This document shows positions 8,381 to 36,629 of a DNA stretch of 64,000 nucleotides, piece after piece (position 1 is the stretch's first letter; each line of letters opens with the position of its first letter). Under the pieces are notes generated by a model, which made no database searches, was not told where the DNA came from, and saw only the letters and a list, made by a program, of their open reading frames with translations. The position numbers and the translations under genes were made by a program. The stretch lies in NCBI RefSeq assembly GCF_044324875.1, contig NZ_CP172185.1. The stretch is one strand, 5' to 3'. Origin of the DNA: Escherichia coli (lineage in GTDB: Bacteria > Pseudomonadota > Gammaproteobacteria > Enterobacterales > Enterobacteriaceae).

Positions 8381-8399
8381 TGTACTGAGAATAAAGACG

Positions 8400-9833: not shown

Positions 9834-9997
9834 TTCTCCGTTCCGACCTGTTTCTTGCAGGGTGAGTTTTTATTTCTGCCAGTCTCTGGCTGGCATGTTA
9901 TTGTCTGGAATAATGAGAGAGCAAAATGGATGAAAGCGTAATACCTCAAAATTGCATTACCTCGAAAGATAAAAATATATTTGTTCCAGGAAAACAG

Positions 9998-11191: not shown

Positions 11192-11205
11192 TATTCAGGT
11201 GTAGC

Positions 11206-12699: not shown

Positions 12700-12711
12700 C
12701 GGGATATTATT

Positions 12712-13725
12712 ATGAAAAACTATCATGCCCTGTCTGTTATTTTTACTCTTATGTTACCCGCGCTGGCGAATGCGAGCATGAGCATCATGAAGGATCCGTC
12801 TGGAAAGGTTATCGCCGTGGACCCTTGGTCATATCTTGATGAAGATGTTATGTGGACCTCAGCCCGCTCCTCCAATCCTGCCGGTGGCCGCGTTCATGGC
12901 CAACTGAAAATGAAATATGCCATTGAGGATAATAACTGGCGTAACAGCCATTTCCACAACGGGAATGATTCGCTGACGTTTGTACAAGGTGTGATGCGGC
13001 ACGATGCGTTACCCGGTTGGTATCTGGCTTTCTCTGAGGGCAGAACCACTAACTATAACGGGACGTGGGAGGATCAGTCTTACCTCAGCCAAAACCAGTG
13101 GACTCAGTTGATCATCGGCCATGAATATTTTTACAAGCGTCTGCGCTATGGCTGGGATGTGATGGGAGGAAGCGCCTCAATCGAAGACCGCTGGCAAGGC
13201 CGCGTTAAGTTCTTTACCGATCTTCGGGTTACGGATAATTTCTCATTCTTTAACTACCTGTATCAGCAGATCGATCACCGGCGCAGCGGTGGGTCGCAAA
13301 ACGACCGTGACGTGCGTTCATTTCAGATTGAGCCAGGCGTGCAATACATTATTAATAACAACACCGGTGTCTGGTTCCGCCAGCAGTTCGCATCTGCCAT
13401 TTTAGACAGGGCGCAGTGGGGCGATATCGACGAAAAAAGCTGGACCACGTCAGTCGGCGTCTGGCGAAACTGGGGGAAGTTATCCACAACGCTCAGCGGC
13501 GGTTATGGTCATTATAAGAAATACAATGCGCAACCTGAGGATGGCGAAGTCTTTCAGAATACCCGCAATCGCTTCCTGAAGGTATCGGCAAATTATCCTT
13601 TGACCTCTCGTTTTACCGTGTCCGGAGAAGTTACTGGTTCGTTGATCAAACAGAACGGAAGTTGGGTCACTAACGGTGAGGCCATTACCACTGAGTATAA
13701 GCTGATGCTGGATTATAACTTTTAA
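12712..13725 (+). CDS. fosY: Predicted outer-membrane beta-barrel protein, paralogue of FosX
   Basis: 337 aa with the signal peptide MKNYHALSVIFTLMLPALANA and the C-terminus ...LMLDYNF. It shares blocks with FosX: RHDxLPxWY, F(E/Q)IEPxxQY, WGDIxExxW...WRNW. Confidence 0.7.
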   Translation: MKNYHALSVIFTLMLPALANASMSIMKDPSGKVIAVDPWSYLDEDVMWTSARSSNPAGGRVHGQLKMKYAIEDNNWRNSHFHNGNDSLTFVQGVMRHDALPGWYLAFSEGRTTNYNGTWEDQSYLSQNQWTQLIIGHEYFYKRLRYGWDVMGGSASIEDRWQGRVKFFTDLRVTDNFSFFNYLYQQIDHRRSGGSQNDRDVRSFQIEPGVQYIINNNTGVWFRQQFASAILDRAQWGDIDEKSWTTSVGVWRNWGKLSTTLSGGYGHYKKYNAQPEDGEVFQNTRNRFLKVSANYPLTSRFTVSGEVTGSLIKQNGSWVTNGEAITTEYKLMLDYNF

Positions 13726-13838
13726 ACCGTACGCTGGATAATCCATGCCACCTGAACACGCTGAAGCGTTAGTAAAAATAGTGACCTTACCGCAGGTCAC
13801 GTTTAAAAAAACAAGTTAATTATTATTAAGGAAATATC

Positions 13839-14801
13839 ATGAATATCTGGACTCTTGGCGATGCTGTTGTTGATCTTCTACCCCTTACAGATATGCAATT
13901 TCGTGCTTGTGCAGGAGGTGCGCCATTTAATGTTGCGATAGGTACTGCACAATTGAAATGTCGTACCGGCTTTATAGGTCGCGTAGGGGATGACGATTTT
14001 GGCCATTTCCTGAGAAAAACTCTCGAAGATTCAGGAGTTTCTACACAATGTATCCAAATGGATAAATATCATCGTACAAGTACAGTACTGGTTTCTCTTA
14101 AAGATCAGGGAGAACGTGGTTTTACATTTCTTACGAACCCTTCAGCCGACCAATTTCTAACACAAGATGCCCTTCCAGCTTTTAGTGATGATATCCTGCA
14201 TTTTTGTTCACTTGCGCTGGTTGCTGCAGATTGCCGCACGACTTTGACTAAAGCAGTCCAGGAAGTCATTGACCACGGTGGACTTATCAGCTTTGATGTT
14301 AATTTACGAGACCAAATGTGGCGTGATAAGGAAGAAATGTTTGCGACAGTGAGTCAATTCGCTGAAAAAGCCGATATCCTTAAACTCTCTGAAGAAGAGT
14401 GGTACTGGTTAATGGGTACACATGATTATACAGAGGCGTTAGAAGCACTCAAAACCCATCCTGCCAGATTAAAAGTGGTCACCTTTGGTGCGAGAGGTTC
14501 ATTGGTATTATGGCAAGATATGGTGATACATTTCAGAGGATTTAATGTTAAAAGTATTGACACAACAGGCGCTGGAGATGCTTTTATGGCTGGGTTACTT
14601 GCCAGCATCGCCAATAAAGGTTTGCCAATGAATTTTCCAGAACTTCAATTAGCAATCACTCAGGCCAGTGCCACCGGAGCGCTCGCAACTACCAAAAAAG
14701 GTGCACTTACCGCCCTTCCTGATACAGCCGCACTGGAAACGTTCATTAATCATTTTCCATTACCGGGCTATGAGATCCTTGGAGCAACCGCTACGGTGTA
14801 A
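13839..14801 (+). CDS. fosK: PfkB-family fructokinase
   Basis: 320 aa with the PfkB signatures (GDAVVD..., DTTGAGDAF). It is visibly more AT-rich than the upstream fos genes. Confidence 0.85.
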   Translation: MNIWTLGDAVVDLLPLTDMQFRACAGGAPFNVAIGTAQLKCRTGFIGRVGDDDFGHFLRKTLEDSGVSTQCIQMDKYHRTSTVLVSLKDQGERGFTFLTNPSADQFLTQDALPAFSDDILHFCSLALVAADCRTTLTKAVQEVIDHGGLISFDVNLRDQMWRDKEEMFATVSQFAEKADILKLSEEEWYWLMGTHDYTEALEALKTHPARLKVVTFGARGSLVLWQDMVIHFRGFNVKSIDTTGAGDAFMAGLLASIANKGLPMNFPELQLAITQASATGALATTKKGALTALPDTAALETFINHFPLPGYEILGATATV

Positions 14802-15454: not shown

Positions 15455-17026
15455 TTACTGAGAGCTCAGATCAACTTTCCAGGGCAACAGATCGCGTACC
15501 CGGTTTGCCGGCCAGTCCTGGATATGTTCAATGACGTAACGCAGCCACTTTTCTGGCTCCACATTGTTCAGACGGCATGTGCCGATCAGCGAGTACAACA
15601 CCGCCGCATGTTCACCACCGCTGTCGGAACCCGCGAACATCCAGTTTTTCCGGCCTACGGCCACTCCCCGTAAGGCGTTCTCTGCGATGTTGTTGTCGAT
15701 TTCCACCCAGCCATTACTGCAGTACACGTTCAGTGCATCCCACTGTTTCAGCAGGTATGCGAACGCTTTTGCCGTATCTGAGTGACGCGACAGTGTTTTC
15801 ATCTGTTGCTGTATCCAGTCATACAGTGACTGCATCAGTGGCGCGGCTCTGGCTTTTCTTGCCGCCAGACGCTGTTCTGCTGAACAGCCCCGGACCTCTG
15901 CCTCGATGGCATACAGTTCACCGATACGCTGCAGGGCTTCCGTGGTGATGTAGGTGGGCGCTCTTGCATGCACATCGTGGATTTTTCTCCGGGCATGAGC
16001 CATACACGCGGCTTCCGTTATTCTGCCGGATTCGTATAACGCCCGGTAACCACCGTAAGCATCGGCCTGAAGCACACCGCTGTAACCGGCCAGGTGATTT
16101 TGTGGATGGATACCTTTCCGGTCCGGACTGTACGCGAACCAGACCGCCGGGGGCATCTGTGAACCGGCGTTACGGTCATCACGGACGTAGACCCACAGCC
16201 GGGCTGTCCGGGTTTTACCGCTGCCCGGCTCCTGGACCGGGACGGGGATATCATCAGCATGGACTTTACCGGGCATCAGCACATACTGGCGCAGGACGTC
16301 ATACAGCGGCTCCAGCAGTTCAGCAACAGCACCTGTCCAGCGCCCCAGTGTGGCACGGCTCAGCTCCACTCCCTGACGACGGTATATTTCTGACTGGCGG
16401 TATAACGGCAGATGGTCTGCATATTTCCCGGTGACAACATGGGCCAGAAGCCCCGCTCCGGCATAACTGCGTGCAATGGGTTTTGAAGGTACTGGTGCCT
16501 GCACGATATGGTCGCACCGGCAACAGGCCTGTTTCGGACGTTGTGTTTCGATAACCTTAAAGGCGCTGCTGATAAGCTCCAGTTGCTCTGACACATCACA
16601 TCCCAGAGAACTGAGTTCACCACCACAGGCAGGACAGCATTCCTCTTCCGGCCGGATAACCCGGGTTTCACGGGGAAGTGAGGCCGGTAACGGTTTACGG
16701 GCTGAAGACTGGCGCAGGGCGGATGGCAGTACCGGGTCATATTGCTCACCCAGCGTTTCCGCCATTTCTTCCTGAAGTGCGCTGATTCGCTCCTGTGCTT
16801 CCTGTATCTGCCGTTCGGTTTTTGCACGAAGTTTTTCTGAGCTTTTACCGAACTGCATACGTTGCAGTTTCGCAACCAGCGCCTTCAGCCGGTTGATTTC
16901 GGAAGCATAAGCCGCCACCCGCTGTGAGAGCAGGCGGTTGTATTCAGCCATCTGGCGGATGGTGTCCTGTTGCGTCTGCAACAGTGCCCGCAGGCGGGCG
17001 TTCTCATGAGCAAGTGAGGTGTCCAT
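15455..17026 (-). CDS. tnpC: IS66-family transposase TnpC (523 aa)
   Basis: Track ORF with an N-terminal coiled coil/leucine zipper, a CxxC...CxxC zinc motif and a DDE core typical of IS66 transposases. Confidence 0.9.
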
Positions 17027-17045
17027 ATCCTCACTTTACAACGGG

Positions 17046-17393
17046 TTATATGCGGATTCCAGCGCGTTCCGTTCGTTTCGGGTGCTTCCAGTTGATACCT
17101 TCAAGAAGCATGGATAACTGAGCCGGAGTAAGGTGCACCTTGCCGTCACGGGTGACTGGCCAGACGAAGCGGCCCCGCTCCAGGCGTTTGGTGAAGAGGC
17201 ACAGTCCGTCACTGTCAGCCCACAACACTTTTATCTGGTCACCCCGGCGTCCGCGGAAGATGAACAGGTGTCCGGAGAACGGGTCATCCTTCAGGACGTT
17301 CTGAACTTTTGATGCCAGGCCGTTAAAGCCATTTCGCATATCGGTGATACCTGCAACCAGCCAGATACGCGAACCTGCAGGGAGAGATATCAT
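17046..17393 (-). CDS. tnpB: IS66-family accessory protein TnpB (115 aa)
   Basis: MISLPAGSRIWLVAGITDMRNGFNGLASKV..., the canonical IS66 Orf2. Its ATGA start overlaps the upstream ORF. Confidence 0.9.
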   Translation of the reverse strand: MISLPAGSRIWLVAGITDMRNGFNGLASKVQNVLKDDPFSGHLFIFRGRRGDQIKVLWADSDGLCLFTKRLERGRFVWPVTRDGKVHLTPAQLSMLLEGINWKHPKRTERAGIRI

Positions 17394-18070
17394 CAGTGGC
17401 TGCTCCCTTTTATTTCGCGGATAAGTGTCTGTAATAACGCCGGCGTCAGTTTACCTTTAAGCCTGAGAGTTCCGGCCGGCAGAACCAGCTCACAACACAG
17501 ACTGTCGGACGGTGTATTTATCTGCTCTGGTTCCTGTGCGGGGGCCGGGATTTTATTATCCGGCTCCGGCGTTAACGTCACGGGAAGCAGTGCCGGCATA
17601 TTTTTTCCGGAAGGCAGCAGGCCACCTTTCCGGTATTGATGGCGCCAGTTGAAGAGCAGGTTATCGTTGATTCCGTTTTCCCGGGCGATCTGCGCCACAC
17701 AGGCTCCGGGCTGCAGTGACTGCTCCACTAAGGCGATTTTAAACTCATAAGGGAAGTTGGGCCGCCGGGGACGTTTTTTTACCACGGGGGCTTCGGATAT
17801 AACGGTGCTTTCAGGACGTACGACTGGTACCGTGGAAAATTGTCCGTAAAGGCAGGCATCAAGTTCCTGCTCCGACATGCCTGCGGGCAAAGGCCACGAA
17901 AGGCCAGCTCTCCGAAAGCGCACGAACATACTACAAACTGTTGATTTTGGTACACCCAGGCGACGCCCGGCCACAACCCGGGGTAAATGTTCTTCAAAGT
18001 GAAGACGTAAAGCTTCAGTGATCCAGGTCCGGTGTTTCATACGATAGTGTCCATTAAAAATGATGGACAT
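17393..18070 (-). CDS. tnpA: IS66-family accessory protein TnpA-like (225 aa, two HTH-like segments)
   Basis: The C-terminal half (FKIALVEQSLQPGACVAQIARENGINDNLLFNWRHQYRKG) matches IS66 Orf1. There is an extra N-terminal HTH-like region. Confidence 0.75.
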   Translation of the reverse strand: MSIIFNGHYRMKHRTWITEALRLHFEEHLPRVVAGRRLGVPKSTVCSMFVRFRRAGLSWPLPAGMSEQELDACLYGQFSTVPVVRPESTVISEAPVVKKRPRRPNFPYEFKIALVEQSLQPGACVAQIARENGINDNLLFNWRHQYRKGGLLPSGKNMPALLPVTLTPEPDNKIPAPAQEPEQINTPSDSLCCELVLPAGTLRLKGKLTPALLQTLIREIKGSSH

Positions 18071-18123
18071 TATTTTTGTAGAGCCGGAGGAAACAGACCA
18101 GACGGTTTAAATGAGCCGGTTAC

Positions 18124-18131
18124 GATTTTAA
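18124..18131. repeat. 8-bp target-site duplication (right copy) of the IS66-family insertion
   Basis: gattttaa lies immediately after ...ccggttac. Confidence 0.9.
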
Positions 18132-18140
18132 GGTGCTTGC

Positions 18141-18416
18141 GTGGCTTCCATTTCCATCAGATGTCCTTCCTGCTCCGCTACTGAAGGCGTGGTGCGTAAC
18201 GGCAAAAGCACTGCCGGACATCAGCGCTATCTCTGCTCTCATTGCCGTAAAACATGGCAACTACAGTTCACTTACACCGCCTCTCAGCCCGGTACGCACC
18301 AGAAAATCATTGATATGGCCATGAATAGCGTCGGATGTCGCGCCAGTGCACGCATTATGGGCGTTGGCCTCAACACGGTTTTACGTCACTTAAAAAACTC
18401 AGGCCGCAGTCGGTAA
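18141..18416 (+). CDS. insA: IS1 InsA (91 aa)
   Basis: [43 protein letters not shown]... The A6C frameshift motif taaaaaac is at 18391-18398. Confidence 0.9.
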
Positions 18417-18790
18417 CCTCGCGCATACAACCGGGCAGTGATGTGATTGTCTGCGCTGAAATGGACGAACAGTGGGGCTACGTCGGTGCTAAATCACGTC
18501 AGCGCTGGCTGTTTTACGCGTATGACAGGATACGGAGGACGGTTGTGGCGCACGTCTTCGGTGAACGCACTCTGGCCACACTGGAGCGTCTTCTGAGCCT
18601 GCTGTCGGCCTTTGAGGTCGTGGTATGGATGACGGATGGCTGGCCGCTGTATGAATCACGCCTGAAGGGAAAGCTGCACGTTATCAGCAAGCGTTACACT
18701 CAGCGCATTGAGCGACATAATCTGAATCTGAGATCTGGCAAGGCTGGGACGGAAGTCACTGTCGTTCTCAAAATCGGTGGAGCTGCATGA
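18335..18790 (+). pseudogene. insB: IS1 InsB' frame with a 3' lesion
   Basis: The frame is collinear with InsB until ...RHNLNL, then reads [19 protein letters not shown] instead of [24 protein letters not shown].... The DNA has ctgagatctggcaagg where IS1 has ctgaggcagcacctggcacgg, a net 5-nt loss. Confidence 0.75.
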
Positions 18791-19430: not shown

Positions 19431-21812
19431 TTAATCATTACAGGATAGGTTCATATTCCATTCATAAGCCTCAATGCCGTTAATCAGTAGTTGACGACTT
19501 TCTCCCTGAGGAATTATCACTTTCAATGTTTCCCATGCAGGGCGATAATCTCCATGAGTGTTTATTCTTAACTCAATTGTAGTGGCTGTGCAGTCCAGCT
19601 CCCATTCAAGCCACAGAGCATTACCTTCAGTATATCCCCAAGTTTCGCCATCATCTTCAAACAGAAGTCCGGTGGATTTACCCGTTCCTTTAATTGGGAA
19701 TAATTTCAATTTACGATGATTATCTTCCGCTTCACTCACGTATGTTATACGTTCACTAAGAGGAATACCTGCACCTGCACGTACTAATAATGGTAGTTTT
19801 TCCAGTGGCGCGTCGATTGTTATCCATTGACCACCACAGAACCATTCGCCATTGTAAAAGTCGTACCATCCTGTTTTGTTGTCGGGTAACCATACTCGTC
19901 GTTGTCGTTGCCCTGCTTCCACGACACTTGCAACCAGAATATCGCGTCCCAGCATAAAATCATCACATTCTTCAAATGTCTGAACATCGTGCTCATGATC
20001 AAGGAAGGTTGGACGTAATATTGGCTCATCATCGGCATGTGCCTGCCACAATAATGTATATAAATAAGGCATAAGACGATAACGTAACTCAATTGCACTA
20101 CGAATCGCGGGTGTTACTTCCGGATACATCCATGGTTCATTGACAGTATGATCATCATTCCACGAGTGGATCGTAAATCGGGGGTGCATAACACCGTTCT
20201 GAACCCAACGAACAAATAATTCTGGATCAGGCTTATCACCAGAAAAACCACCGACATCATGACCAATGTTATACAATCCTGAGAGGCTCATTCCCAGCCC
20301 CATGCGGGTGTTGTATCGAAGGGTATCCCAGTTAGTTCGGTTGTCCCCACTCCATGTCTGAACATAACGCTGCAATCCGGCGCATCCAGAGCGGGAAATC
20401 AAATATGGTCGTTTGTTCGGTGCAAATTTTTGCTGTGCTTCCATAGATGCTCTGCACATTAAAAGAGGCATTACTGGCCGAATGTGTTTAATGGCGATTT
20501 CTTTGCCAAAACCATGACAGCGCGCTTCCCCATCCCATACTTCAAACTCATTGTTATCATTCCAGGTGGAATCAATTCCCATTTCAAGTAGTTGTGTGGT
20601 TACACCTTCCTGCCACCATGCGACTGTTTGTGGGTTCGTAAAGTCCAGATGAGAACCCTCATCATCCCAGAAGCTGGAGCGTTCCGGGACGTTGTATTCA
20701 GAGTCACGAATAAAGAGCTCTTGTTCTGCTACTTCGTTATAGCGAGGATGATCCTGCAATAAACATGGTTTTATATTAGCGGCCAGGTGTATCCCTGCAT
20801 TATGAAACTCCTGACTCATCATTTTAGGGTGTGGAACTTTGTCGTAATTCCAGTTGAATACGTAGCGTTTACCATTAATAGAAGTATAACCAGAAGATAG
20901 CTGGAAAGAATCACATGGAATAGCATGTTCCTTACAAAGACGAATAAACTGCATCAATTGATTCTGAGCATCCGGTGCATCTGTATAGTGCATCGTGGAA
21001 CCGCTGTACCCAAGACTCCATTTTGGACCGAAGAGTGTTTTCCCCGTCAAACGAACAAAGGCTTTGGTGATATCAAGTACACATCTGCCAGTGAAAAGAT
21101 AATAATCAATATCTCCCGCCTCAGCCTGCCAACGGCGGTAAGTTGTATGATAATTATCTATTTCATTACCTAAATCCAGCCAACTATTGCTGAGGTTATC
21201 ATAAAATAATCCAAAGCTAATATCGCTACGGTGAGTAATTGTAAATGGAATATGTTTATAAAGAGGGTCTGTACTTACTGCATTATATCCCATTGCGTCC
21301 AGGTTCCGCATTTCATAGCGTTTTCCTGTGCGTTGCAGATCCCCGGATTTATCACCAAGTCCATAAAAACGCTCGTCATTACGTCGACTTTGATAGTGTG
21401 CAACACCATCACCATGAGCGTTTATCAGATAAGCACTGGTAGGGCGATCATTAACAAGTTCCTGCCACTGACCAGCATTATCCTTATAATGCCATTCAAG
21501 CCATAAAGGCTTGTGAATAATTACGCGTAATGAACTGGTCGTGATTGTCAGTAATTCATCATTCTGCTCCATGTTCCAGGTCGGCAGTGAAAAACCGCTA
21601 ATATCTTCGCGATGACGCCCTTCCCACGGGACATCCTTTTCCGGAGCAATGCTCCAGGTTCGGTCCAGCGACAAAACCCCCTTCCGTTTTAATAGAACCC
21701 GGAACATATTTTCTTCGAGTATATACAGGCAAAGAGAATGCTGACCATCAACTAATAGCTCTATATGATGGGCTGACTGATTTTGTAGTTTCCAGTTTTT
21801 TAATGTTTTCAT
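19431..21812 (-). CDS. GH31 family alpha-glycosidase (about 793 aa)
   Basis: The GH31 catalytic motifs are present: ...DSTWNDNNEF (nucleophile Asp region) and GHDVGGF (acid/base region). The start is taken at the ATG at 21812 (GGGAG 9 nt upstream); the track ORF begins at the GTG at 21818. Confidence 0.85.
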   Translation of the reverse strand: MKTLKNWKLQNQSAHHIELLVDGQHSLCLYILEENMFRVLLKRKGVLSLDRTWSIAPEKDVPWEGRHREDISGFSLPTWNMEQNDELLTITTSSLRVIIHKPLWLEWHYKDNAGQWQELVNDRPTSAYLINAHGDGVAHYQSRRNDERFYGLGDKSGDLQRTGKRYEMRNLDAMGYNAVSTDPLYKHIPFTITHRSDISFGLFYDNLSNSWLDLGNEIDNYHTTYRRWQAEAGDIDYYLFTGRCVLDITKAFVRLTGKTLFGPKWSLGYSGSTMHYTDAPDAQNQLMQFIRLCKEHAIPCDSFQLSSGYTSINGKRYVFNWNYDKVPHPKMMSQEFHNAGIHLAANIKPCLLQDHPRYNEVAEQELFIRDSEYNVPERSSFWDDEGSHLDFTNPQTVAWWQEGVTTQLLEMGIDSTWNDNNEFEVWDGEARCHGFGKEIAIKHIRPVMPLLMCRASMEAQQKFAPNKRPYLISRSGCAGLQRYVQTWSGDNRTNWDTLRYNTRMGLGMSLSGLYNIGHDVGGFSGDKPDPELFVRWVQNGVMHPRFTIHSWNDDHTVNEPWMYPEVTPAIRSAIELRYRLMPYLYTLLWQAHADDEPILRPTFLDHEHDVQTFEECDDFMLGRDILVASVVEAGQRQRRVWLPDNKTGWYDFYNGEWFCGGQWITIDAPLEKLPLLVRAGAGIPLSERITYVSEAEDNHRKLKLFPIKGTGKSTGLLFEDDGETWGYTEGNALWLEWELDCTATTIELRINTHGDYRPAWETLKVIIPQGESRQLLINGIEAYEWNMNLSCND

Positions 21813-21826
21813 CTCCACATACTCCC

Positions 21827-23128
21827 TCAGGTGCGTTTTTTGCGACGTTCTGCAATAAAAGTAACCAGAAAAAAAGCACCAATAAGATCAAAAAATCCCA
21901 TGGCGATAAATAGCGGGTTAAAGCCTATTTTGTCAGCAGTAACGCCAATAATCAGTGAGAACAAAAAGCTGGCAATCCATGCGGCTGAACCACGCATTCC
22001 ATTAACAGTGGCCATCTGCCCCTTATCAAAAGATTCAACGACCAGGGCACTTAACATGCAGGAAATTATCTGATGACCAAAACCACCAATGGAGATAAGT
22101 ACAATAGCAATATATGGATTGTCGATAAAAGCAATCACAGCAAGCGAAACCATTAGAAATGCTCCGCTTACAGAGGACGCAATAACAGAATTTACTCTGC
22201 TTAACCCAAACAGACGGGTATAGAGTTTTGTCAGATATCCGCTGGCAATACTTCCTAAATCAGCGCAAAGAAATGGTAACCATGCAAACAGAGCTATTTG
22301 TTTAAGGTCCATGCCATATGCTTTTGCAAGATATAATGGCACCCAAAAGCTCATTACAGCCCATGCTGGCTCTGCCATAAATGCAGGGATAGCGATTCCA
22401 TAAAAGCGTTTATTTTTACTAACTGTTTTTAACGCGGTCAGAAAAGGCATTTTTACCGGAGGAGCTTCGTTATCCTGTCGGATAAAGTTGAGCTCATTTT
22501 TACTTAAGTTTGGGTGCTCTTCTGGTGTGTTATAACACGCCCACCAAAGGAAAACCCAAAGAATTGCAAGTGCACCTGTAAACATAAATGCACCCTGCCA
22601 ACCAAATGACGCATGTGCAAAGTAAATAATTGGTGGTGCAAGCATTGCACCGATAGAAAAACCGACACCCGCCCAGCCAGCAGCAACAGGACGTTCAGAT
22701 TTTGGAAACCACTCACCTATAATTTTTGCATTTGCAGGTGTCGCAGAAGCCTCAGCACCTCCCATGAAAAAACGAAGCAACGCAAGCTGTATCCAGCTTC
22801 CTGCTCCTGCATGCAGAAGACAAGCAATTCCCCATAATGAAGCACAAATCATAAATCCAATCTTGAGCCCAATAACATCAATTAGCCATCCACAAAGTGG
22901 CTGAAAAAGGGTATATGCAAGCTGAAATCCACCAACAATCCAGGAGTATTGTTCAGTTGTAATTCCAAGGCTGTCTTTTAACTCTGGTGCCAAAATACCT
23001 AATGAGTTTCTGGTAATATAATTGACAGTGACACCCATTAGAAAAAGGATTAACATCCACCACCGTAGTTGTCTTATTATTCGACGGTGTTTGCTGACAG
23101 CTATATTATTATTTATATCCTGACTCAT
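21827..23128 (-). CDS. MFS transporter of the anion:cation symporter type (ExuT hexuronate-transporter-like)
   Basis: Collinear similarity to E. coli ExuT as I recall it (LRWxM..., YLTRN, FPxxERxxAxG, AEPAWxxxxxW.PL, FAWxPxLxADLG). The start is chosen at MSQDINNN (23128). Confidence 0.8.
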   Translation of the reverse strand: MSQDINNNIAVSKHRRIIRQLRWWMLILFLMGVTVNYITRNSLGILAPELKDSLGITTEQYSWIVGGFQLAYTLFQPLCGWLIDVIGLKIGFMICASLWGIACLLHAGAGSWIQLALLRFFMGGAEASATPANAKIIGEWFPKSERPVAAGWAGVGFSIGAMLAPPIIYFAHASFGWQGAFMFTGALAILWVFLWWACYNTPEEHPNLSKNELNFIRQDNEAPPVKMPFLTALKTVSKNKRFYGIAIPAFMAEPAWAVMSFWVPLYLAKAYGMDLKQIALFAWLPFLCADLGSIASGYLTKLYTRLFGLSRVNSVIASSVSGAFLMVSLAVIAFIDNPYIAIVLISIGGFGHQIISCMLSALVVESFDKGQMATVNGMRGSAAWIASFLFSLIIGVTADKIGFNPLFIAMGFFDLIGAFFLVTFIAERRKKRT

Positions 23129-23389
23129 AATCACCCCACCGGATGTAATAAATGATCGAGCGACAACGCAGCTCGGGGTTGCCACATCCCACTTTACCTT
23201 TCGGCTTAATACTTAAACCGGAACTACTCATTCACAATAAAAGAGGGGGGCGATGAAAAAAAGTTGGTATTGTGCACGTTTTTTCATAAGTAGTTCATAT
23301 AAATTCTAAAAATAGTCAGAAGTCCTTGCAGTCAGGCTATTCCATCCCATGAGAATTTTTTCATTTTGAAATTAGAGATAGATCACAAT

Positions 23390-24460
23390 ATGGAAAAAAA
23401 ACTAAAGATTGCTGATATTGCCATGCGAACAGGCCTTTCATCCAGCACCGTGTCACGGGTTTTAGCGGGTAAAGCTAATACCAGTTATCGTGCCCGCGAG
23501 AAAGTATTGGCGTGTGCCAGAGAGCTTGGGGTTATGGATGGAATGGCATCCGGCCGTATGTTGTTAAACAACCTTGTCATTTTTGCTCCTCAACGGGCTT
23601 TTGATGAGCGAACAGACATTTTTTATTTCCGCGTAATCCAAAGCATCAGCAAGGCATTATCGCATTATGAGGTTCGGTTGCGTTACTGTGCCCTTGATGA
23701 GTTCGATAGTACACCTTCAAAATTCCTGGCGCGCATGAATGAGGCAGAAACACAGGCTGCAATATTGCTTGGTATTGATGATCCTCATATACATGATCTT
23801 GCAGCAGATTTTTCTAAGCCGTGCGTAATGATTAACTGCCATGATCGACGTATGCGTCTTCCCACAGTTGCTCCAGATCACAAAAACATTGGTGCTTTTG
23901 CGTCTCACTTTCTGTTTGAAATGGGGCATCGCAGAGTAATGAACATTATGTGTTTACGTCGATACACAATGGAACTGCGACTTGCCGGAATTAAAGAAGC
24001 ATGGGAGAGACAGAATCAGAACTTTAAAGATGACAGAGATTTACTCACTATTAATAGTTTCAGCGCCAAAGAAGCCGAAGAAAAAGTCGGAGCATGGCTG
24101 GATATGACAGAGAAAAGTATGCTACCGACTGCTTTTTTGGCAAGTGGGGACTTCATTGCTGCAGGTATAATTAACGCTTTAAAAAAACGTAATATACGAG
24201 TGCCACAAGATGTGTCCGTAATGAGTATTGATGGGTTTAATCTGGCTGCAATAGAAGATGTGCCACTTACGGCAGTACATGTACCTCGCGATGAACTGGG
24301 TACTGAAGCGGTACATATGTTACAACAAAGACTTGTACGTCCTGATGCAACTGTTGGTGCATTACTTTTGTATGGGAAACTGGTAATACGAGAATCTGTT
24401 CGCCGTATACGGCCAGGGAAAGAGCCAACTCCGATTAAAGGAGATGGACTGTATGACTGA
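23390..24460 (+). CDS. LacI/GalR-family transcriptional regulator
   Basis: It has the HTH KIADIAMRTGLSSSTVSRVLAGK and a sugar-binding core. It is divergent from the MFS-GH31 pair. The start is taken at the ATG at 23390. Confidence 0.85.
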   Translation: MEKKLKIADIAMRTGLSSSTVSRVLAGKANTSYRAREKVLACARELGVMDGMASGRMLLNNLVIFAPQRAFDERTDIFYFRVIQSISKALSHYEVRLRYCALDEFDSTPSKFLARMNEAETQAAILLGIDDPHIHDLAADFSKPCVMINCHDRRMRLPTVAPDHKNIGAFASHFLFEMGHRRVMNIMCLRRYTMELRLAGIKEAWERQNQNFKDDRDLLTINSFSAKEAEEKVGAWLDMTEKSMLPTAFLASGDFIAAGIINALKKRNIRVPQDVSVMSIDGFNLAAIEDVPLTAVHVPRDELGTEAVHMLQQRLVRPDATVGALLLYGKLVIRESVRRIRPGKEPTPIKGDGLYD

Positions 24461-24857: not shown

Positions 24858-25901
24858 CTACTGATACTGTATGCCAGTATGTTTCATGCCTGCCGCTGAA
24901 AACGGCAATATCCAGGGCCAGACATATTCACCATTCATATTTCTGCATTTCTGTACAATTTTTTCAGAAAGCGTCTCATCAATTCTTTCACGCAACTTCT
25001 CCTGCTGTCTTAAAATACTTTCGCATATTTCGAAATCACCTTCCTGCATCAGCATTTCGGCGCATTTAATGATTTCTGCCCGTTCATGCAGCACAGAGGA
25101 ATGATTATAGAGCCAGTTTACAAACAGCAATGCTTCCGGATATTGTCCCCATAATGGTGAGTATGTTGCATAGTAATCTTCTGCCGTATCCAGAGAGCCG
25201 GAGAAGTCATGCCACACAGCAAGTGGAAATGGATGCAGATTTCCGCACAGCATTTCTGCGATGTAAGTGTTTGTGGCAAAGCCATGGCGAAAATCTGTGG
25301 CGGCCTTAACATGTTCCCCGTTCAGAAAATGCAGGAGACCGAGTTCATACCAGTAAGGTGAAAATTCATCAGCATGCTCTTTCAGTACACTGAAGGCTCG
25401 CTCATGATCGCCGGTGCGTAACAGCTCTGAACCCAACAACCAGCGAGCCCCCTGATTATCTTCAGGATTGTATGCCAGTATTTTATCAGTGAGCATAACC
25501 GCATCCTGATGGCGCTGTAAGTGCACATTTGCGAGAATTGCTGCATAAAGCGCGCGCAGATAAGGCCGGTTTTCGGGATGCATCCAGATTATTTCACCAC
25601 AGAAACTTTCCGGGATGATACGATTACCTGCCGCCAGTCCTTTAAGAGCGGCGTTCAGTGCCTTACGCGGGGCATTCTGTTCCAGAAATGCATATGCCAG
25701 ATGAGCGTGTATATCAATAAAATCCGGCTCCCGTTGAGCAAGGCGTCGGAGTTTGTTGATGTAACTCGTCTCGCTGATTTCATCAGCGTCGTATGCATCA
25801 AGCACTTCTTCAAACTCCCCCAGCAATGGGCCAAACCAGGTATCCGGAAATACGAAATAACCCTGGTTATCGTGCACTTCAAAGCATAATCTATCGTTCA
25901 T
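24858..25901 (-). CDS. Hypothetical protein with TPR-like helical repeats (347 aa)
   Basis: Track ORF with repeated amphipathic helix pairs (e.g. HAHLAYAFLEQNAPRKALNAALKGL; YLRALYAAILANVHLQRHQDAVMLTDKILAYNPED; WYELGLLHFLNGEHVKAATDFRHG). I recognise no catalytic motif. Confidence 0.6.
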   Translation of the reverse strand: MNDRLCFEVHDNQGYFVFPDTWFGPLLGEFEEVLDAYDADEISETSYINKLRRLAQREPDFIDIHAHLAYAFLEQNAPRKALNAALKGLAAGNRIIPESFCGEIIWMHPENRPYLRALYAAILANVHLQRHQDAVMLTDKILAYNPEDNQGARWLLGSELLRTGDHERAFSVLKEHADEFSPYWYELGLLHFLNGEHVKAATDFRHGFATNTYIAEMLCGNLHPFPLAVWHDFSGSLDTAEDYYATYSPLWGQYPEALLFVNWLYNHSSVLHERAEIIKCAEMLMQEGDFEICESILRQQEKLRERIDETLSEKIVQKCRNMNGEYVWPWILPFSAAGMKHTGIQYQ

Positions 25902-26311: not shown

Positions 26312-27496
26312 TTAACTTTCCCGGCTGGAGAGTGAATCAATGTAATCAGCGTACCATTGCATCATTTCACGGCGGCCATCGAGATACAGGGCATGATTAT
26401 AGGTACCCCTGATGGAATTTTTATCCACATGAGCTAACTGCATTTCAATCCAGGCGGAATTAAAGCCTTGTTCATGCAGAATTGTACTCATGGTGTGTCT
26501 GAAACCGTGCCCTGTGAGTCTTCCCTTATATCCAAGTAATTCAATTACTTGGTTAATGCTTTCCTTACTAATTGGTTTGCGGGGATCATTTCTACCGATA
26601 AAGACTAGGGGATGATGTTTTGAGATTGGTTCAAGCTGCTTAAATAGCATAATGACCTGCTCAGAGAGCGGCACAATATGAGGTCGCTTCATCTTCATTA
26701 CTTCTGCCGGGATCTCCCACAATTTTGTCTCAAAATCGATATCTTCCCAGCGTGCAAAACGCAGTTCTTGTGTTCGTACGCCGGTTAACATAATGATCTG
26801 AGTAGCTGTCTTAGTGATTATACTTCCGGTATAACCCGCCAGATCGTTGAGGAAGTGGGGAAGTTCATTAGCAGTAAGAAAGGGAAAATGTACTTTTTTC
26901 GGTGTAGCTAAAGCACTGGCAAGATCGGGGGCTGGGTTATAGTCTGCCCGGCCAGTAACAATTGCATAGCGGAACACCTCACCACAGCGCTGGCGGACCT
27001 TGCGCATTTTCTCCAGAGCTCCACGTTTTTCCATTTTACGCAGTGCTTCCAGTAACTCCATTGGTTTGATTTCGGCAATAGGGCGCTTGCCAATGTAGGG
27101 AAAAATGTCTTTTTCAAAGGTATCAATGATTTCATCACGATAGCGTAATGACCACCGATCGGCTTTTGACTGGTGCCATTCGCGAGCAATAGCCTCGAAC
27201 GTATTTTGCAGACTCATTTGCTGCGCGATTTTTTCTTCCTTTTTTGCCTCCCCTGGATCGCCTCCAGCAGCGAGGAGTTTCCTGGCTTCACTGCGTTTCT
27301 CGCGAGCATCGGCTAGCGTTACATCGGGGTATACGCCAATAGAAAGCATCTTTTCTTTACCAGCAAAGCGGTACTTCATGCGCCAGTATTTAGAACCATT
27401 AGTGTTAATCAGTAGATACATACCGCCGCCATCAGCAAGCTTATAGGGTTTGTCTTTGGGTTTTGCGGTTTTCACTTTGATATCGGTTAATGCCAT
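26312..27496 (-). CDS. int: P4-type tyrosine integrase (394 aa), intact
   Basis: It has the N-terminal DUF4102-like arm domain (KPYKLADGGGMYLLI...GSKYWRMKYRFAGKEK) and the catalytic residues ...HGFRHT... and ...RGTYNH.... It lies 300 bp from the 3' end of selC. Confidence 0.9.
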   Translation of the reverse strand: MALTDIKVKTAKPKDKPYKLADGGGMYLLINTNGSKYWRMKYRFAGKEKMLSIGVYPDVTLADAREKRSEARKLLAAGGDPGEAKKEEKIAQQMSLQNTFEAIAREWHQSKADRWSLRYRDEIIDTFEKDIFPYIGKRPIAEIKPMELLEALRKMEKRGALEKMRKVRQRCGEVFRYAIVTGRADYNPAPDLASALATPKKVHFPFLTANELPHFLNDLAGYTGSIITKTATQIIMLTGVRTQELRFARWEDIDFETKLWEIPAEVMKMKRPHIVPLSEQVIMLFKQLEPISKHHPLVFIGRNDPRKPISKESINQVIELLGYKGRLTGHGFRHTMSTILHEQGFNSAWIEMQLAHVDKNSIRGTYNHALYLDGRREMMQWYADYIDSLSSRES

Positions 27497-27795: not shown

Positions 27796-27890
27796 TGGCG
27801 GAAGATCACAGGAGTCGAACCTGCCCGGGACCGCTGGCGGCCCCAACTGGATTTGAAGTCCAGCCGCCTCACCGGAGACGACGATCTTCC
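27796..27890 (-). tRNA. selC: tRNA-Sec (selenocysteine, UCA anticodon)
   Basis: The minus strand reads GGAAGATCGTCGTCTCCGGTGAGGCGGCTGGACTTCAAATCCAGTTGGGGCCGCCAGCGGTCCCGGGCAGGTTCGACTCCTGTGATCTTCCGCCA, 95 nt with the long extra arm. Confidence 0.95.
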
Positions 27891-28182: not shown

Positions 28183-29565
28183 ATGAAGAGTGAAGTGTTG
28201 TCCGTTAAAGAGAAAATTGGTTATGGCATGGGAGACGCCGCCAGCCACATTATTTTCGATAACGTAATGTTATATATGATGTTCTTTTATACCGATATTT
28301 TTGGCATTCCTGCCGGATTTGTCGGAACTATGTTTTTGGTCGCTCGTGCACTGGATGCGATTTCCGATCCTTGCATGGGGTTGTTGGCCGATCGAGCGCG
28401 CTCTCGCTGGGGTAAATTTCGTCCGTGGGTACTGTTTGGCGCACTGCCATTTGGGATCGTCTGTGTACTGGCCTATAGCACGCCAGATCTCAGTATGAAC
28501 GGAAAAATGATTTATGCAGCAATTACTTACACCCTACTTACCTTACTTTATACCATCGTTAATATCCCTTACTGCGCATTGGGTGGTGTAATCACCAATG
28601 ACCCGACTCAGCGTATCTCGCTGCAATCCTGGCGTTTTGTGCTGGCGACCGCGGGAGGCATGCTCTCTACTGTGCTGATGATGCCGCTGGTTAATTTAAT
28701 TGGTGGTGATAATAAACCACTCGGTTTCCAGGGCGGTATCGCGGTCCTTTCCGTGGTGGCATTCATGATGCTGGCATTTTGTTTCTTTACCACTAAAGAA
28801 CGCGTTGAAGCACCACCTACAACGACGTCTATGCGGGAAGATTTACGTGATATCTGGCAAAACGATCAGTGGCGGATTGTCGGTTTACTGACCATTTTCA
28901 ATATTCTGGCGGTGTGCGTACGCGGCGGGGCGATGATGTATTACGTCACATGGATTTTGGGTACGCCGGAAGTGTTTGTCGCTTTTCTTACCACTTATTG
29001 CGTGGGTAACCTGATTGGTTCCGCACTGGCGAAACCGCTGACCGACTGGAAATGTAAAGTCACTATCTTCTGGTGGACGAACGCCCTGCTGGCAGTGATT
29101 AGCCTCGCGATGTTCTTTGTTCCTATGCAGGCCAGCATCACTATGTTTGTCTTCATCTTCGTGATTGGTGTGTTGCATCAACTGGTGACACCTATCCAGT
29201 GGGTAATGATGTCCGATACCGTCGACTACGGCGAGTGGTGCAATGGTAAACGCCTGACCGGGATCAGTTTTGCTGGCACGCTGTTTGTGCTCAAGCTGGG
29301 GTTGGCCTTCGGCGGCGCTCTTATCGGCTGGATGCTGGCTTATGGCGGATATGATGCGGCAGAAAAAGCGCAGAACAGCGCCACGATTAGCATCATTATC
29401 GCGCTATTCACGATTGTTCCGGCGATCTGTTATTTGCTGAGCGCGATTATCGCTAAACGCTACTACTCACTCACGACGCACAATCTGAAAACCGTTATGG
29501 AACAGCTGGCTCAGGGCAAACGCCGTTGCCAGCAACAATTCACCTCTCAAAATGTGCAGAACTAA
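28183..29565 (+). CDS. yicJ: GPH-family glycoside/pentoside:cation symporter
   Basis: Matches K-12 YicJ (MKSEVLSVKEKIGYGMGDAASH...). Confidence 0.95.
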   Translation: MKSEVLSVKEKIGYGMGDAASHIIFDNVMLYMMFFYTDIFGIPAGFVGTMFLVARALDAISDPCMGLLADRARSRWGKFRPWVLFGALPFGIVCVLAYSTPDLSMNGKMIYAAITYTLLTLLYTIVNIPYCALGGVITNDPTQRISLQSWRFVLATAGGMLSTVLMMPLVNLIGGDNKPLGFQGGIAVLSVVAFMMLAFCFFTTKERVEAPPTTTSMREDLRDIWQNDQWRIVGLLTIFNILAVCVRGGAMMYYVTWILGTPEVFVAFLTTYCVGNLIGSALAKPLTDWKCKVTIFWWTNALLAVISLAMFFVPMQASITMFVFIFVIGVLHQLVTPIQWVMMSDTVDYGEWCNGKRLTGISFAGTLFVLKLGLAFGGALIGWMLAYGGYDAAEKAQNSATISIIIALFTIVPAICYLLSAIIAKRYYSLTTHNLKTVMEQLAQGKRRCQQQFTSQNVQN

Positions 29566-29574
29566 GGAACGGCA

Positions 29575-31893
29575 ATGAAAATTAGCGACGGAAACTGGTT
29601 GATTCAACCTGGCCTCAATTTGATTCACCCGCTTCAGGTGTTCGAGGTTGAACAGCAGGGTAATGAAATGGTGGTCTATGCTGCCCCTCGTGATGTGCGT
29701 GAACGTACCTGGCAGCTTGATACGCCTTTATTTACGCTGCGCTTTTTCTCCCCACAGGAAGGTATTGTCGGTGTACGGATTGAGCATTTTCAGGGGGCGC
29801 TGAATAACGGTCCTCATTACCCGCTCAATATTTTGCAGGACGTGAAGGTCACAATCGAAAACACAGAACGTTACGCTGAGTTTAAAAGTGGCAACTTAAG
29901 TGCGCGTGTCAGCAAAGGTGAGTTCTGGTCACTGGATTTTCTGCGTAACGGCGAACGTATTACCGGTAGTCAGGTGAAAAATAATGGCTACGTGCAGGAC
30001 ACGAATAATCAACGAAATTATATGTTTGAGCGGCTGGATCTTGGCGTTGGCGAAACAGTTTACGGTCTGGGAGAGCGCTTTACTGCGCTGGTGCGCAATG
30101 GCCAGACGGTAGAGACCTGGAACCGGGACGGCGGCACAAGTACTGAACAGGCGTATAAAAATATCCCGTTCTATATGACTAACCGTGGCTATGGGGTACT
30201 GGTCAATCATCCTCAATGCGTCTCTTTTGAAGTGGGATCGGAGAAAGTCTCCAAAGTGCAGTTCAGCGTTGAGAGTGAATATCTCGAATACTTTGTTATC
30301 GACGGCCCGACGCCGAAAGCGGTACTTGATCGTTATACCCGTTTTACTGGTCGTCCGGCGCTGCCGCCCGCGTGGTCCTTCGGCCTGTGGCTAACCACTT
30401 CATTTACCACCAACTACGACGAAGCGACGGTAAACAGTTTTATCGATGGTATGGCGGAACGCAATCTGCCACTGCATGTTTTCCACTTTGACTGTTTCTG
30501 GATGAAAGCCTTCCAGTGGTGCGATTTTGAGTGGGACCCGCTGACTTTCCCGGACCCGGAAGGGATGATCCGCCGCCTGAAAGCGAAAGGGCTAAAAATC
30601 TGCGTCTGGATTAACCCCTATATCGGGCAAAAATCCCCTGTCTTTAAAGAGTTACAAGAGAAAGGCTATTTACTCAAACGCCCGGACGGTTCGTTATGGC
30701 AGTGGGATAAATGGCAGCCAGGTCTGGCGATTTATGACTTTACCAATCCGGATGCCTGCAAATGGTACGCCGACAAACTGAAAGGTCTGGTCGCGATGGG
30801 CGTTGATTGCTTTAAGACCGACTTTGGCGAACGTATTCCAACCGATGTTCAGTGGTTTGACGGTTCCGATCCGCAGAAAATGCATAACCATTATGCGTAC
30901 ATCTACAACGAACTGGTGTGGAAAGTGCTCAAGGAAACCGTTGGCGAGGAAGAAGCCGTCTTGTTTGCTCGCTCGGCCTCCGTTGGTGCGCAGAAATTCC
31001 CGGTACACTGGGGTGGTGACTGTTACGCTAACTACGAATCAATGGCGGAAAGCCTGCGCGGTGGTTTGTCTATTGGCCTTTCAGGTTTTGGTTTCTGGAG
31101 CCACGATATCGGCGGCTTTGAGAATACCGCGCCGGCGCACGTTTACAAACGCTGGTGCGCGTTTGGTTTGCTCTCCAGCCATAGCCGTTTACACGGCAGC
31201 AAATCTTATCGTGTGCCGTGGGCCTACGATGATGAGTCCTGTGATGTGGTGCGCTTCTTCACGCAACTGAAATGCCGCATGATGCCGTATCTGTATCGTG
31301 AAGCTGCTCGTGCGAACGCGCGGGGTACGCCGATGATGCGGGCCATGATGATGGAGTTTCCGGACGATCCGGCTTGTGATTACCTTGACCGTCAATACAT
31401 GTTAGGCGACAACGTGATGGTTGCGCCTGTGTTCACTGAATCGGGCGATGTGCAGTTCTACTTGCCTGAAGGTCGCTGGACACACCTGTGGCACAACGAT
31501 GAACTCGATGGTAGTCGCTGGCATAAACAGCAGCACAGCTTCCTGAGTCTGCCCGTTTATGTGCGTGATAACACCCTACTGGCGCTGGGCAACAACGAGC
31601 AACGTCCCGATTACGCGTGGCACGAAGGCACGGCATTCCAGCTCTTTAATCTACAAGACGGGCATGAAGCCATCTGTGAAGTGCCCGCTGCTGACGGTTC
31701 CGTTCTTTTCACCCTGAAAGCGGCGCGTACTGGCAACACGATTACTGTGACTGGTGCGGGCGAGGCGAAGAACTGGACACTGTGCTTGCGCAATATTGTG
31801 AAAGTAAATGGTCTGCAAGGTGGTTCGCAGGCTGAAAGTGAGCAGGGACTGGTGGTGACTCCTCAAGGGAATGCGCTGACAATTACGTTGTAA
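29575..31893 (+). CDS. yicI: GH31 alpha-xylosidase
   Basis: 772 aa, matches K-12 YicI (KTDFGE nucleophile region, HDIGGF). Confidence 0.95.
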
Positions 31894-33741: not shown

Positions 33742-33767
33742 TGTCAGAATTTTATGAGGTATGACGA

Positions 33768-34238
33768 ATGGACATAACAAAAATCCTGAATACGAATCGC
33801 GTTATTTTAGATATGCAAGCGACGAATAAAGCGGAGGCGATTGAAGAATTAACTAATCTTCTCAAAAAAGATGGTGCGATCGATTGTCGGGAAACCTTTA
33901 TTAAAGATGTCTGGCAGCGCGAAGCGGAAGGCTCGACTGGTTTTGAAAATCATATTGCGATCCCGCATGGTAAATCTTCTGCGGTAATTAATACCACGCT
34001 GGCTATCGGGCGTACCCGGCAGGATATTCCCTGGGAAACACTGGATGGCAGTAGCGTACGCTGTATTATTTTATTTGCGGTACGTCTTGAAGATCAAAAT
34101 ACCACTCATATCCGTTTACTTTCCCAGGTCGCGGGCGCGCTTGCAGATGATGACATCATAGCGCAATTGCTGGTTGAGACGAGCCCGCAAAAAATCATTG
34201 ATCTCTTTAGTCAGTATGCACAATCCGATGTCTACTAA
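33768..34238 (+). CDS. PTS EIIA component (fructose/mannitol family)
   Basis: 156 aa with the phosphorylatable His in the IAIPHGKS context. Confidence 0.85.
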   Translation: MDITKILNTNRVILDMQATNKAEAIEELTNLLKKDGAIDCRETFIKDVWQREAEGSTGFENHIAIPHGKSSAVINTTLAIGRTRQDIPWETLDGSSVRCIILFAVRLEDQNTTHIRLLSQVAGALADDDIIAQLLVETSPQKIIDLFSQYAQSDVY

Positions 34239-34255
34239 ATAACAGGGAGTATATC

Positions 34256-34570: not shown

Positions 34571-34594
34571 TCCTTATACTGGAGGGATCTTAAT

Positions 34595-35686: not shown

Positions 35687-35697
35687 CCGGAGGCCCT

Positions 35698-36549: not shown

Positions 36550-36629
36550 TTCATTTTCTGTCATGGCCTTTATGCCAGTGCAATAACGCACCGGCAGGGC
36601 GGACTACACGCTGAAACTGGAGATTTAAC

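Follow-up and report, generated by a model that had tools for sequence, protein, structure and literature searches.

A three-gene module of Escherichia coli, made up of a GH31 glycosidase, a transporter of the major facilitator superfamily (MFS) and a divergently transcribed LacI-family regulator, is proposed here, with moderate confidence, to be a self-contained system for the uptake and hydrolysis of a small alpha-D-glucuronide, in which a cytoplasmic GH31 alpha-glucuronidase would feed the Ashwell pathway. The module occupies positions 19431-24460 of a 64,000-nt stretch of E. coli assembly GCF_044324875.1 (contig NZ_CP172185.1), which is referred to as the window and on which all positions are based. 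The substrate was narrowed to a uronate because three independent lines of evidence, namely the transporter type, the gene context and the active site of the enzyme, point to it. The locus is already known, and the alpha-glucuronide role for this locus and for a large GH31 clade, which was not in the literature searched, is a new proposal.

The module and its identity

The aec-37-type GH31 glycosidase, called Aec37 here, is encoded at 19431-21812 on the minus strand (793 amino acids from the RefSeq ATG at 21812, WP_001313395.1; open reading frame (ORF) 19431-21818). Its gene follows that of an aec-36-type MFS protein of the anion:cation symporter (ExuT/DgoT) type (21827-23128, minus strand; 433 amino acids from the ATG at 23128; ORF 21827-23185), with 14 nt between the MFS stop and the GH31 start. 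The aec-35-type LacI/GalR-family regulator gene (23390-24460, plus strand; 356 amino acids from the ATG at 23390) is divergent from this operon, and an intergenic regulatory region (23129-23389) lies between the two. Pfam assigned four GH31 domains to the enzyme, MFS_1 to the transporter, and LacI and Peripla_BP_3 to the regulator. The GC content was 0.38-0.44 over 19-25 kb versus approximately 0.52 in the flanks. An earlier note made from the sequence alone had described this AT-rich trio at the same coordinates, with its divergent LacI gene and 14-nt gap, and the ORFs, the Pfam domains and the GC content agree with that description.

The trio is the published aec-35/36/37 cluster of an AGI-3-type selC island, for which the substrate is undefined, because the AT-rich island that carries it at selC, beside a P4-type integrase, also holds the fos locus. 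The fos locus was described for the AGI-3 island of the avian extraintestinal pathogenic E. coli (ExPEC) strain BEN2908 (PMC3325963), and aec35-37 serve as markers of avian pathogenic E. coli (APEC) (PMC10189387), so that the earlier note had been right to point to a similar trio in the selC island of avian ExPEC. The cluster of BEN2908 published by Chouikha et al. (2006, J Bacteriol 188:977) agrees with the trio in gene types, gene order, integrase adjacency and fos island, and nothing structural differs; what differs is the proposed substrate class, which is new.

The transporter

The MFS protein is collinear with K-12 ExuT, with 43% identity over 414 amino acids (E 5e-120). Its top NCBIfam model was the anion:cation symporter (ACS) subfamily TIGR00893, at 266 bits and under the cut-off of 395, and its best solved relatives were the D-galactonate:H+ symporter DgoT (8e-37), followed by VGLUT and sialin, all of which are organic-anion carriers. 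It therefore belongs to the ACS family (TC 2.A.1.14), which includes ExuT and DgoT. R47 and E133 of DgoT, which we take to be the carboxylate-binding arginine and the coupling glutamate, respectively, are both conserved in the island protein, as R40 and E126. The anion:cation type assigned in the earlier note was thus upheld, and the grouping with neutral-sugar carriers that would have spoken against it was not seen, since the best relatives are ExuT, DgoT and organic-anion carriers. The contrast drawn there with the native yicJ-yicI operon of the same window (28183-31893) also holds, since YicJ matched Pfam MFS_2, that is, the glycoside-pentoside-hexuronide (GPH) type.

In other genera, the orthologous carriers share 69-90% identity with the E. 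coli island protein, as opposed to 42-43% between the island carrier and ExuT, and by this comparison the island MFS is an ExuT paralogue, not an ExuT orthologue. In relation to the K-12 exuT/uxaCA/exuR and uxuAB/uxuR systems, the MFS-GH31 pair of Erwiniaceae, Pragia and Aeromonas occupies the position of K-12 exuT, divergent from uxu/uxa genes. Unlike ExuT, however, the island-type carrier always has a glycosidase directly after it, and in E. coli its control is by a LacI-family rather than a GntR-family regulator.

Gene neighborhoods of the GH31 clade

The gene context of Aec37 and its relatives was analyzed in 80 genomic loci (one per species, from Enterobacterales, Pseudomonas and Aeromonas), 80 metagenomic loci and nine look-ups of distant members, with neighboring ORFs annotated by BLAST against reference proteins. 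After GH31 sequences were collapsed at 90% identity, the approximately 168 loci formed 77 clusters. An ExuT-like (ACS) MFS gene was located immediately upstream of the GH31 gene in 49 of the 77 clusters, and the 14-nt MFS-GH31 junction was kept in essentially every MFS-bearing locus. A TRAP (tripartite ATP-independent periplasmic) carboxylate transporter, DctPQM, adjoined the GH31 gene in 13 clusters, and a divergent LacI gene was present in 36. Genes for UxaC, UxuA, UxuB, ManD, KdgK or Eda were found within 8 kb of the GH31 gene in 26 clusters, 24 of which are among the 41 clusters without LacI, and UxaA, of the galacturonate branch, was found in none of the 77.

In several loci the GH31 gene lies inside a glucuronate operon. 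For instance, one locus has uxaC-uxuB-eda-kdgK-GH31 as one operon beside manD (L094), another has manD-kdgK-eda-dctQ-dctM-GH31-dctP (L096), two have uxaC-uxuA-uxuB-dctP-dctQ-dctM-GH31 (L100 and L119), and in a further one an exuR-like gene and dctP are divergent from dctQ-dctM-GH31-uxaC-uxuB-uxuA (L114). With the MFS as partner, uxuA-(uxuB)-uxaC-gntR is divergent from MFS-GH31 in Erwinia amylovora, Pantoea dispersa and Erwinia phyllosphaerae, uxuA is divergent from MFS-GH31-uxuB-uxaC in Pragia fontium, and uxaC-uxuB is divergent from MFS-GH31 in Aeromonas. The identities of these neighbors were supported by family models: ManD matched an NCBIfam equivalog at 750 bits (cut-off 550), the 493-amino-acid UxuB matched fructuronate reductase at 803 bits (cut-off 603), and UxuA was backed by Pfam. 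For a random gene, the chance of having a single-copy gene such as uxaC as close as 8 kb should be well below 1%. The recurrence of uxaC with three unrelated transporter families is therefore not accidental, and it is the GH31 gene itself, not only the MFS gene, that is tied to glucuronate catabolism.

More distant members have other partners. A Paraburkholderia operon consists of ACS-MFS-GH31-porin, with an MFS 45% identical to that of E. coli, and a very abundant human-gut Eubacterium lineage (L088-L090) has an operon of GPH carrier-carboxylesterase-GH31, in which the carrier matched the general GPH subfamily model first and "glucuronide transporter" as the next-best NCBIfam model. The Eubacterium operon hints that an esterified acidic glycoside is a common gut substrate; the member itself is part of a 90% cluster that comprises approximately 6,055 sequences, and 406 blocks of the collection list it.

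No sulfoglycolysis or sulfoquinovose catabolic genes were among the neighbors identified in the approximately 168 loci, no phosphosugar genes were linked to the GH31 clade, and no aglycone-specific genes were consistently linked to the GH31 loci. The earlier note had suggested an acidic alpha-glycoside of the uronate, sulfo or phospho kind. The uronate part of this suggestion is supported by the transporter, the gene context and the active site, whereas the sulfo and phospho parts are not favored, as no such genes are linked.

Among the other neighborhoods, those of Yersiniaceae (der, xseA, guaB, guaA) and of Klebsiella (the ybiX/ybiT region) are housekeeping flanks and were discarded as uninformative. 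Genes for a GDE_C/GH63-like glycosidase, a PIG-L family deacetylase and a GPH-type carrier follow the GH31 gene in one metagenomic locus (L095, 12383-16416), and uxaC lies downstream in convergent orientation; the locus may encode a more extensive pathway, directed at an oligosaccharide that is N-acetylated and contains uronate.

The enzyme and its active site

Aec37 is a GH31 protein with PF01055 (E 1.4e-89), PF13802, PF21365 and PF17137, that is, the TIM-barrel together with the N-terminal, proximal and distal beta-domains. The nucleophile Asp419 (W-N-D-N-N-E) aligned to D416 of YicI and D405 of YihQ, and Asp490 (T-W-S-G-D) aligned to D482 of YicI and D472 of YihQ. The earlier note had located the two catalytic aspartates in WNDNNEF and HDVGGF. 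By these alignments both catalytic residues are intact and the first assignment stands, but the acid/base is Asp490 and not the HDVGGF aspartate (Asp519). The N-terminus (MKTLKNWKLQNQ) has no signal peptide; therefore, the enzyme is predicted to be cytoplasmic, and its substrate must enter the cell whole.

The NCBIfam matches of the enzyme fell well short of their cut-offs. The top NCBIfam match was the alpha-glucosidase MalA, at 313.7 bits versus a cut-off of 800; the model for YicI-type alpha-xylosidases (GH31_3), PRK10658, gave 232.5 bits versus 606, and that for sulfoquinovosidases, PRK10426, gave 139 bits versus 553. The closest solved structures were the Flavobacterium GH31 dextranase 6jr6 (approximately 30% identity, with none closer) and glucosidase II of the endoplasmic reticulum (ER). 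An AlphaFold2 model built from a 15-sequence orthologue alignment had a mean pLDDT (predicted local distance difference test) of 48.7, with the catalytic domain below 50, and was not used.

An exhaustive search was made over 1.8 billion representatives, and the best 150 matches were aligned with MAFFT. Approximately 100 of these 150 (34-52% identity) have S306-S307-G308-Y309, Arg316, N346 and N420 like Aec37. Arg316 is invariant in this clade and lies inside an insertion of two to three residues, usually preceded by lysine or arginine (K315 in Aec37). The next-nearest, canonical sequences have D-I-D-Y, no such arginine, isoleucine or methionine at 346 and methionine at 420 (W-N-D-M-N-E), while W382, W417, D419, R474, W487, D490, F523 and H549 are common to both groups. 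Aec37 thus lacks both the glycone aspartate of the canonical alpha-glucosidases (D-[IL]-D-Y-M) and the methionine after the nucleophile (WxDMNE). The altered positions correspond to Asp404 of GAA and its neighbor (D306-C307-F308 of YicI), Met519 of GAA, and W315 and W345 of YicI, and the bulky C6-pocket residues of YicI (F277, C307, F308, W315 and W345) are replaced by H275, S307, G308, R316 and N346 in Aec37. The C307I/F308D double mutant of YicI reportedly gains alpha-glucosidase activity, which would put these positions at the C6 pocket. In GAA, Asp404 binds the glycone directly (PMC9389588, PMC7357040).

In the MAFFT alignment and in an independent hhalign profile alignment, Arg316 aligned to Arg301 and Gln304 to Gln288 of YihQ. 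The Q/E-RWY motif of sulfoquinovosidases recognizes the sulfonate and the aglycone of sulfoquinovosyl glycerol (PMC12780224). This motif (Q288, R301, W304 and Y508 in YihQ) is incomplete in Aec37: the glutamine and the arginine are kept as Q304 and R316, whereas the tryptophan and the tyrosine are replaced by F319 and F523. When compared with sulfoquinovosidase, alpha-xylosidase and alpha-glucosidase, as the earlier note had recommended, the subsite signature therefore differs from all three, with Arg316 and Gln304 shared with YihQ. The -1 subsite of the clade is predicted to be remodeled, with an arginine at the sulfonate-binding position of YihQ. We think it slightly better than an even chance that the Aec37 clade (approximately 100 clusters at 50% identity among the best matches, including the human-gut Eubacterium cluster) consists of alpha-glucuronidases, a new GH31 specificity, which would arise by the loss of the canonical glycone aspartate and the placement of an arginine at the C6-sulfonate position of the sulfoquinovosidases.

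The signature residues of clade members within glucuronate operons are identical to those of the E. coli enzyme, and because they are exactly alike, these members are probably isofunctional with it. A GH31 subclade with G306 and with N549 instead of histidine, which keeps Arg316 and WNDNNE (L093, 10001-12376), is encoded behind a sugar ABC transporter (SBP_bac_1, two permeases and MalK), with no uronate genes; this subclade may have a different substrate.

The regulator and its predicted operators

The regulator belongs to the LacI/GalR family (PF00356, PF13377 and PF00532), and a palindrome is located near its own promoter. In nearly all of the 52 LacI-type loci, a 14-bp palindrome, TGAAAnnnTTTTCA, was found 26-30 bp (approximately 60 bp in some genera) from the lacI start, and its E. 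coli version is TGAGAATTTTTTCA at 23350-23363 (O1). A second site, TGCACGTTTTTTCA (reverse complement TGAAAAAACGTGCA), is located at 23273-23286 (O2), approximately 77 bp from O1, centre to centre, and a related second site, TGAAAAnnnnTGCA, is conserved in the Serratia, Pectobacterium, Buttiauxella and Enterobacter loci. From this comparative motif, O1 and O2 are predicted to be the operators of Aec35. An inverted repeat at 23253-23264/23276-23287 was not taken as an operator, as the comparative motif points to the two sites above.

Upstream of the MFS gene, uxu-type loci contained perfect TTGGTnnACCAA palindromes, and so did many LacI-type loci, from Pectobacterium, Serratia, Brenneria, Yersinia and Atlantibacter. 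In ten loci (L043, L044, L046, L047, L049, L052, L061, L084, L034 and L037) they lie 135-217 bp upstream of the MFS start, alongside the LacI-type operators. UxuR recognizes a FadR-type TKGT/ACMA box with a 2-nt spacer (GT-2nt-AC), whereas ExuR sites have a 3-nt spacer (PMC4494728). TTGGTnnACCAA is accordingly named a putative UxuR-type box, by its spacing only. The K-12 uxaC-exuT intergenic region, which was scanned as a positive control, contained no perfect TTGGTnnACCAA site, because of this difference in spacer length between ExuR and UxuR sites (PMC4494728). The boxes suggest that the operon is part of the glucuronate regulon in the genera that bear them, and their occurrence beside the LacI-type operators suggests dual control by a local LacI repressor and a global glucuronate regulator.

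Proposed pathway

We infer the following route for the module. The ExuT-paralogous MFS would import the intact acidic glycoside together with a proton, the carboxylate being held by the sugar-acid arginine of the family. Aec37, as a retaining hydrolase with Asp419 as nucleophile and Asp490 as acid/base, would hold the glucuronosyl unit at the -1 subsite. There, Arg316 would pair with the C6 carboxylate, and Arg316 together with Ser306/Ser307, Asn346 and Asn420 would replace the aspartate and the hydrophobic residues that surround C4-C6 in canonical alpha-glucosidases. Hydrolysis, an activity like that of EC 3.2.1.139, would free D-glucuronate and the aglycone, and the glucuronate would enter the core Ashwell pathway (UxaC, UxuB, UxuA, KdgK and Eda). 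The LacI-family repressor would occupy O1 and O2, the palindromic operators of the divergent promoter region, and the glycoside would presumably release it; the E. coli version of the module, which is mobile and self-contained, would in this way have control specific to its substrate. Candidates for the substrate, which differ in the aglycone, are aldobiouronic acid derived from xylan, the GlcA-inositol head group of the glycosylinositol phosphorylceramides (GIPCs) of plants and fungi, and the glucuronosyl-glycerol of glucuronosyl-diacylglycerol. A literature search on enzymes for glucuronosyl-glycerol gave nothing relevant.

The proposed route resembles known systems in part. Loci for alpha-glucuronidases of other families (GH67 AguA, GH115 and GH4) follow the same logic of alpha-glucuronide import and cytoplasmic hydrolysis with Ashwell genes alongside, but their enzymes belong to unrelated fold families, and Aec37 contains only GH31 domains. 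The Geobacillus aldouronate cluster of Shulami (1999) is said to include kdgK-kdgA-uxaC-uxuA-uxuB. The uidABC operon likewise combines a transporter with a cytoplasmic glucuronidase that feeds the same pathway, and there the beta anomer, a GH2 enzyme, a GPH carrier and the TetR-family UidR are involved. YihQ (GH31_13) of the yih operon offers a parallel inside GH31: its alpha-glycoside substrate is anionic at C6, its product enters a pathway dedicated to a sugar acid, and its arginine and glutamine align with those of Aec37. In contrast to the yih system, however, the module has an enzyme only 23% identical to YihQ, with phenylalanines for the tryptophan and tyrosine of RWY, an ACS instead of a GPH carrier, and glucuronate instead of sulfoquinovose genes in related loci.

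Alternative explanations

It is also conceivable that the glycone is neutral (alpha-glucose or alpha-xylose) and that the acid is the aglycone, as in an alpha-glucosyl- or alpha-xylosyl-(1->x)-glucuronate whose uronate end is read by the transporter. Such a substrate would also account for the glucuronate genes and carboxylate transporters nearby, since its hydrolysis would still give glucuronate, and it could fit a weak trehalose/alpha-glucoside phenotype; furthermore, the residues that bind O2 and O3 (R474, H549, W382, W417, W487 and F523) are all kept. However, a glucose glycone would be expected to keep the aspartate of D-I-D-Y, and the changed residues are at -1 subsite positions (D404 of GAA; D306/C307/F308 of YicI), including an arginine at the C6-anion position of YihQ, and we therefore consider a neutral glycone unlikely. 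An alpha-D-galacturonidase acting on saturated di- or oligogalacturonates from pectin appears rather improbable. ExuT carries both hexuronates, the aspartate that contacts the O4 region in its equatorial position is lost, which could favor a sugar with axial O4, the module is present in the pectinolytic genera Pectobacterium and Brenneria, and the deletion studied by Chouikha (2006) reportedly slowed growth on galacturonate, but the linked genes are those of the glucuronate branch (UxuA, the ManD equivalog and fructuronate reductase), with UxaA in none of the 77 clusters, and the regulatory boxes have UxuR-type spacing.

Two further possibilities concern known GH31 activities. That Aec37 is an ordinary neutral alpha-glucosidase of the trehalose, nigerose or isomaltose type, with the MFS as a second hexuronate carrier that shares no substrate with it, would agree with MalA as the top NCBIfam model, with GH31 dextranase and ER glucosidase II as the closest structures, and with the passage of a review in which the genes are called trehalose-uptake genes (PMC7549927). 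This is very unlikely, as the family scores are far under their cut-offs (313.7 bits versus 800 for MalA), the GH31 gene keeps company with three unrelated families of carboxylate transporter (ACS-MFS, TRAP, and GPH closest to the glucuronide transporter model) and also lies in glucuronate operons, the 14-nt junction is conserved and the signature residues are unlike those of canonical alpha-glucosidases. A second sulfoquinovosidase, which would release sulfoquinovose, is extremely unlikely. In its favor, Arg316 and Gln304 match Arg301 and Gln288 of YihQ in the alignments, and sulfoquinovosidase activity arose independently in other GH31 clades (PMC12780224). Against it, Phe319 and Phe523 stand where the motif has tryptophan and tyrosine, sulfoglycolysis genes were not observed in any locus examined, and E. 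coli already has YihQ and its GPH carriers.

Several points weigh against the alpha-glucuronide proposal itself. No GH31 alpha-glucuronidase was found in the literature searched, so that there is no precedent, and the residue roles are based on alignment to solved structures at 23-30% identity. A uronate gene within 8 kb is missing from many of the 77 clusters, including 34 of the 36 of LacI type. At the E. coli locus, too, no uronate genes adjoin the module, and the UxuR-type box has degenerated to a single half-site (TTGGTA, 23264-23269). We know of no enzymology for any member of the GH31 clade. The trehalose uptake named in the review passage cited above (PMC7549927) is a phenotype that the alpha-glucuronide proposal does not predict, although the deletion studied by Chouikha (2006), by which seven carbohydrates are said to have been affected, reportedly also removed the regulator gene.

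Implications

If the alpha-glucuronide proposal is correct, Aec37 would bring a new activity, that of an alpha-glucuronidase, and a sequence signature (S-S-G-Y ... K-R ... N ... W-N-D-N-N-E) to GH31, and the "alpha-glucosidase" label could be put right for thousands of proteins from Proteobacteria and gut Firmicutes. It would be a second instance, after the sulfoquinovosidases, in which the same loop position of GH31 adapted to a C6 anion, and the E. coli module would be the alpha-anomer counterpart of uidABC. ExPEC and commensals would thereby reach plant, fungal and bacterial alpha-glucuronides (aldobiouronic acid; the head groups of GIPCs or glucuronosyl-diacylglycerol), and the clade would point to an alpha-glucuronide pool evidently used by many soil, plant and gut bacteria. 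For twenty years aec-35 to aec-37 have been scored as an APEC fitness or virulence marker without a known substrate, and a substrate class would turn them into a defined nutrient-acquisition trait.

The island and other features of the window

The entire 6-kb block was found in 329 of 5,426 complete E. coli genomes. A plasmid-borne origin was rejected, as the module is essentially chromosomal: only four records of the plasmid collection carry the MFS-GH31 pair, and one of them is 4.9 Mb in size. On one side of the module, the gene for a 347-amino-acid protein with tetratricopeptide repeats (TPR; 24858-25901, minus strand) lies between the LacI gene and the P4-type tyrosine integrase gene of the island (26312-27496), followed by the tRNA-Sec gene of the selC site (27796-27890). 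The TPR-repeat protein gene is kept alongside the module in E. coli genomes and is not adjacent to it in other genera.

On the other side, an insertion sequence (IS) stretch (15455-18790), with an IS66-family transposase (15455-17026), an IS fragment (17393-18070) and a frameshifted IS1 (18141-18790), sits between the module and the complete fos locus (5906-14801), which serves the use of short-chain fructooligosaccharides and encodes a LacI regulator, a LacY-type carrier, two GH32 enzymes and PfkB. FosX (9926-11191) and FosY (12712-13725), described as being of unknown function, both matched Pfam Porin_OmpG_1_2 (E approximately 1e-129) and probably act as porins for oligosaccharides in the outer membrane. 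The module of strain 7/2 (L001) instead adjoins IS1 and a truncated sugar-transporter pseudogene, near yicL, nlpA and remnants of ETT2; given these different surroundings, the island is therefore mosaic between strains.

Downstream of yicI, a run of ORFs at 32188-38470 positionally matches a cluster annotated in strain 7/2, with a BglG-type antiterminator, IIA, IIB and IIC components of a fructose-type phosphotransferase system, two aldolases, a ROK kinase and a lyxose/mannose isomerase. This run, which is presumably the frz operon of ExPEC, is a third accessory sugar system at the selC locus.

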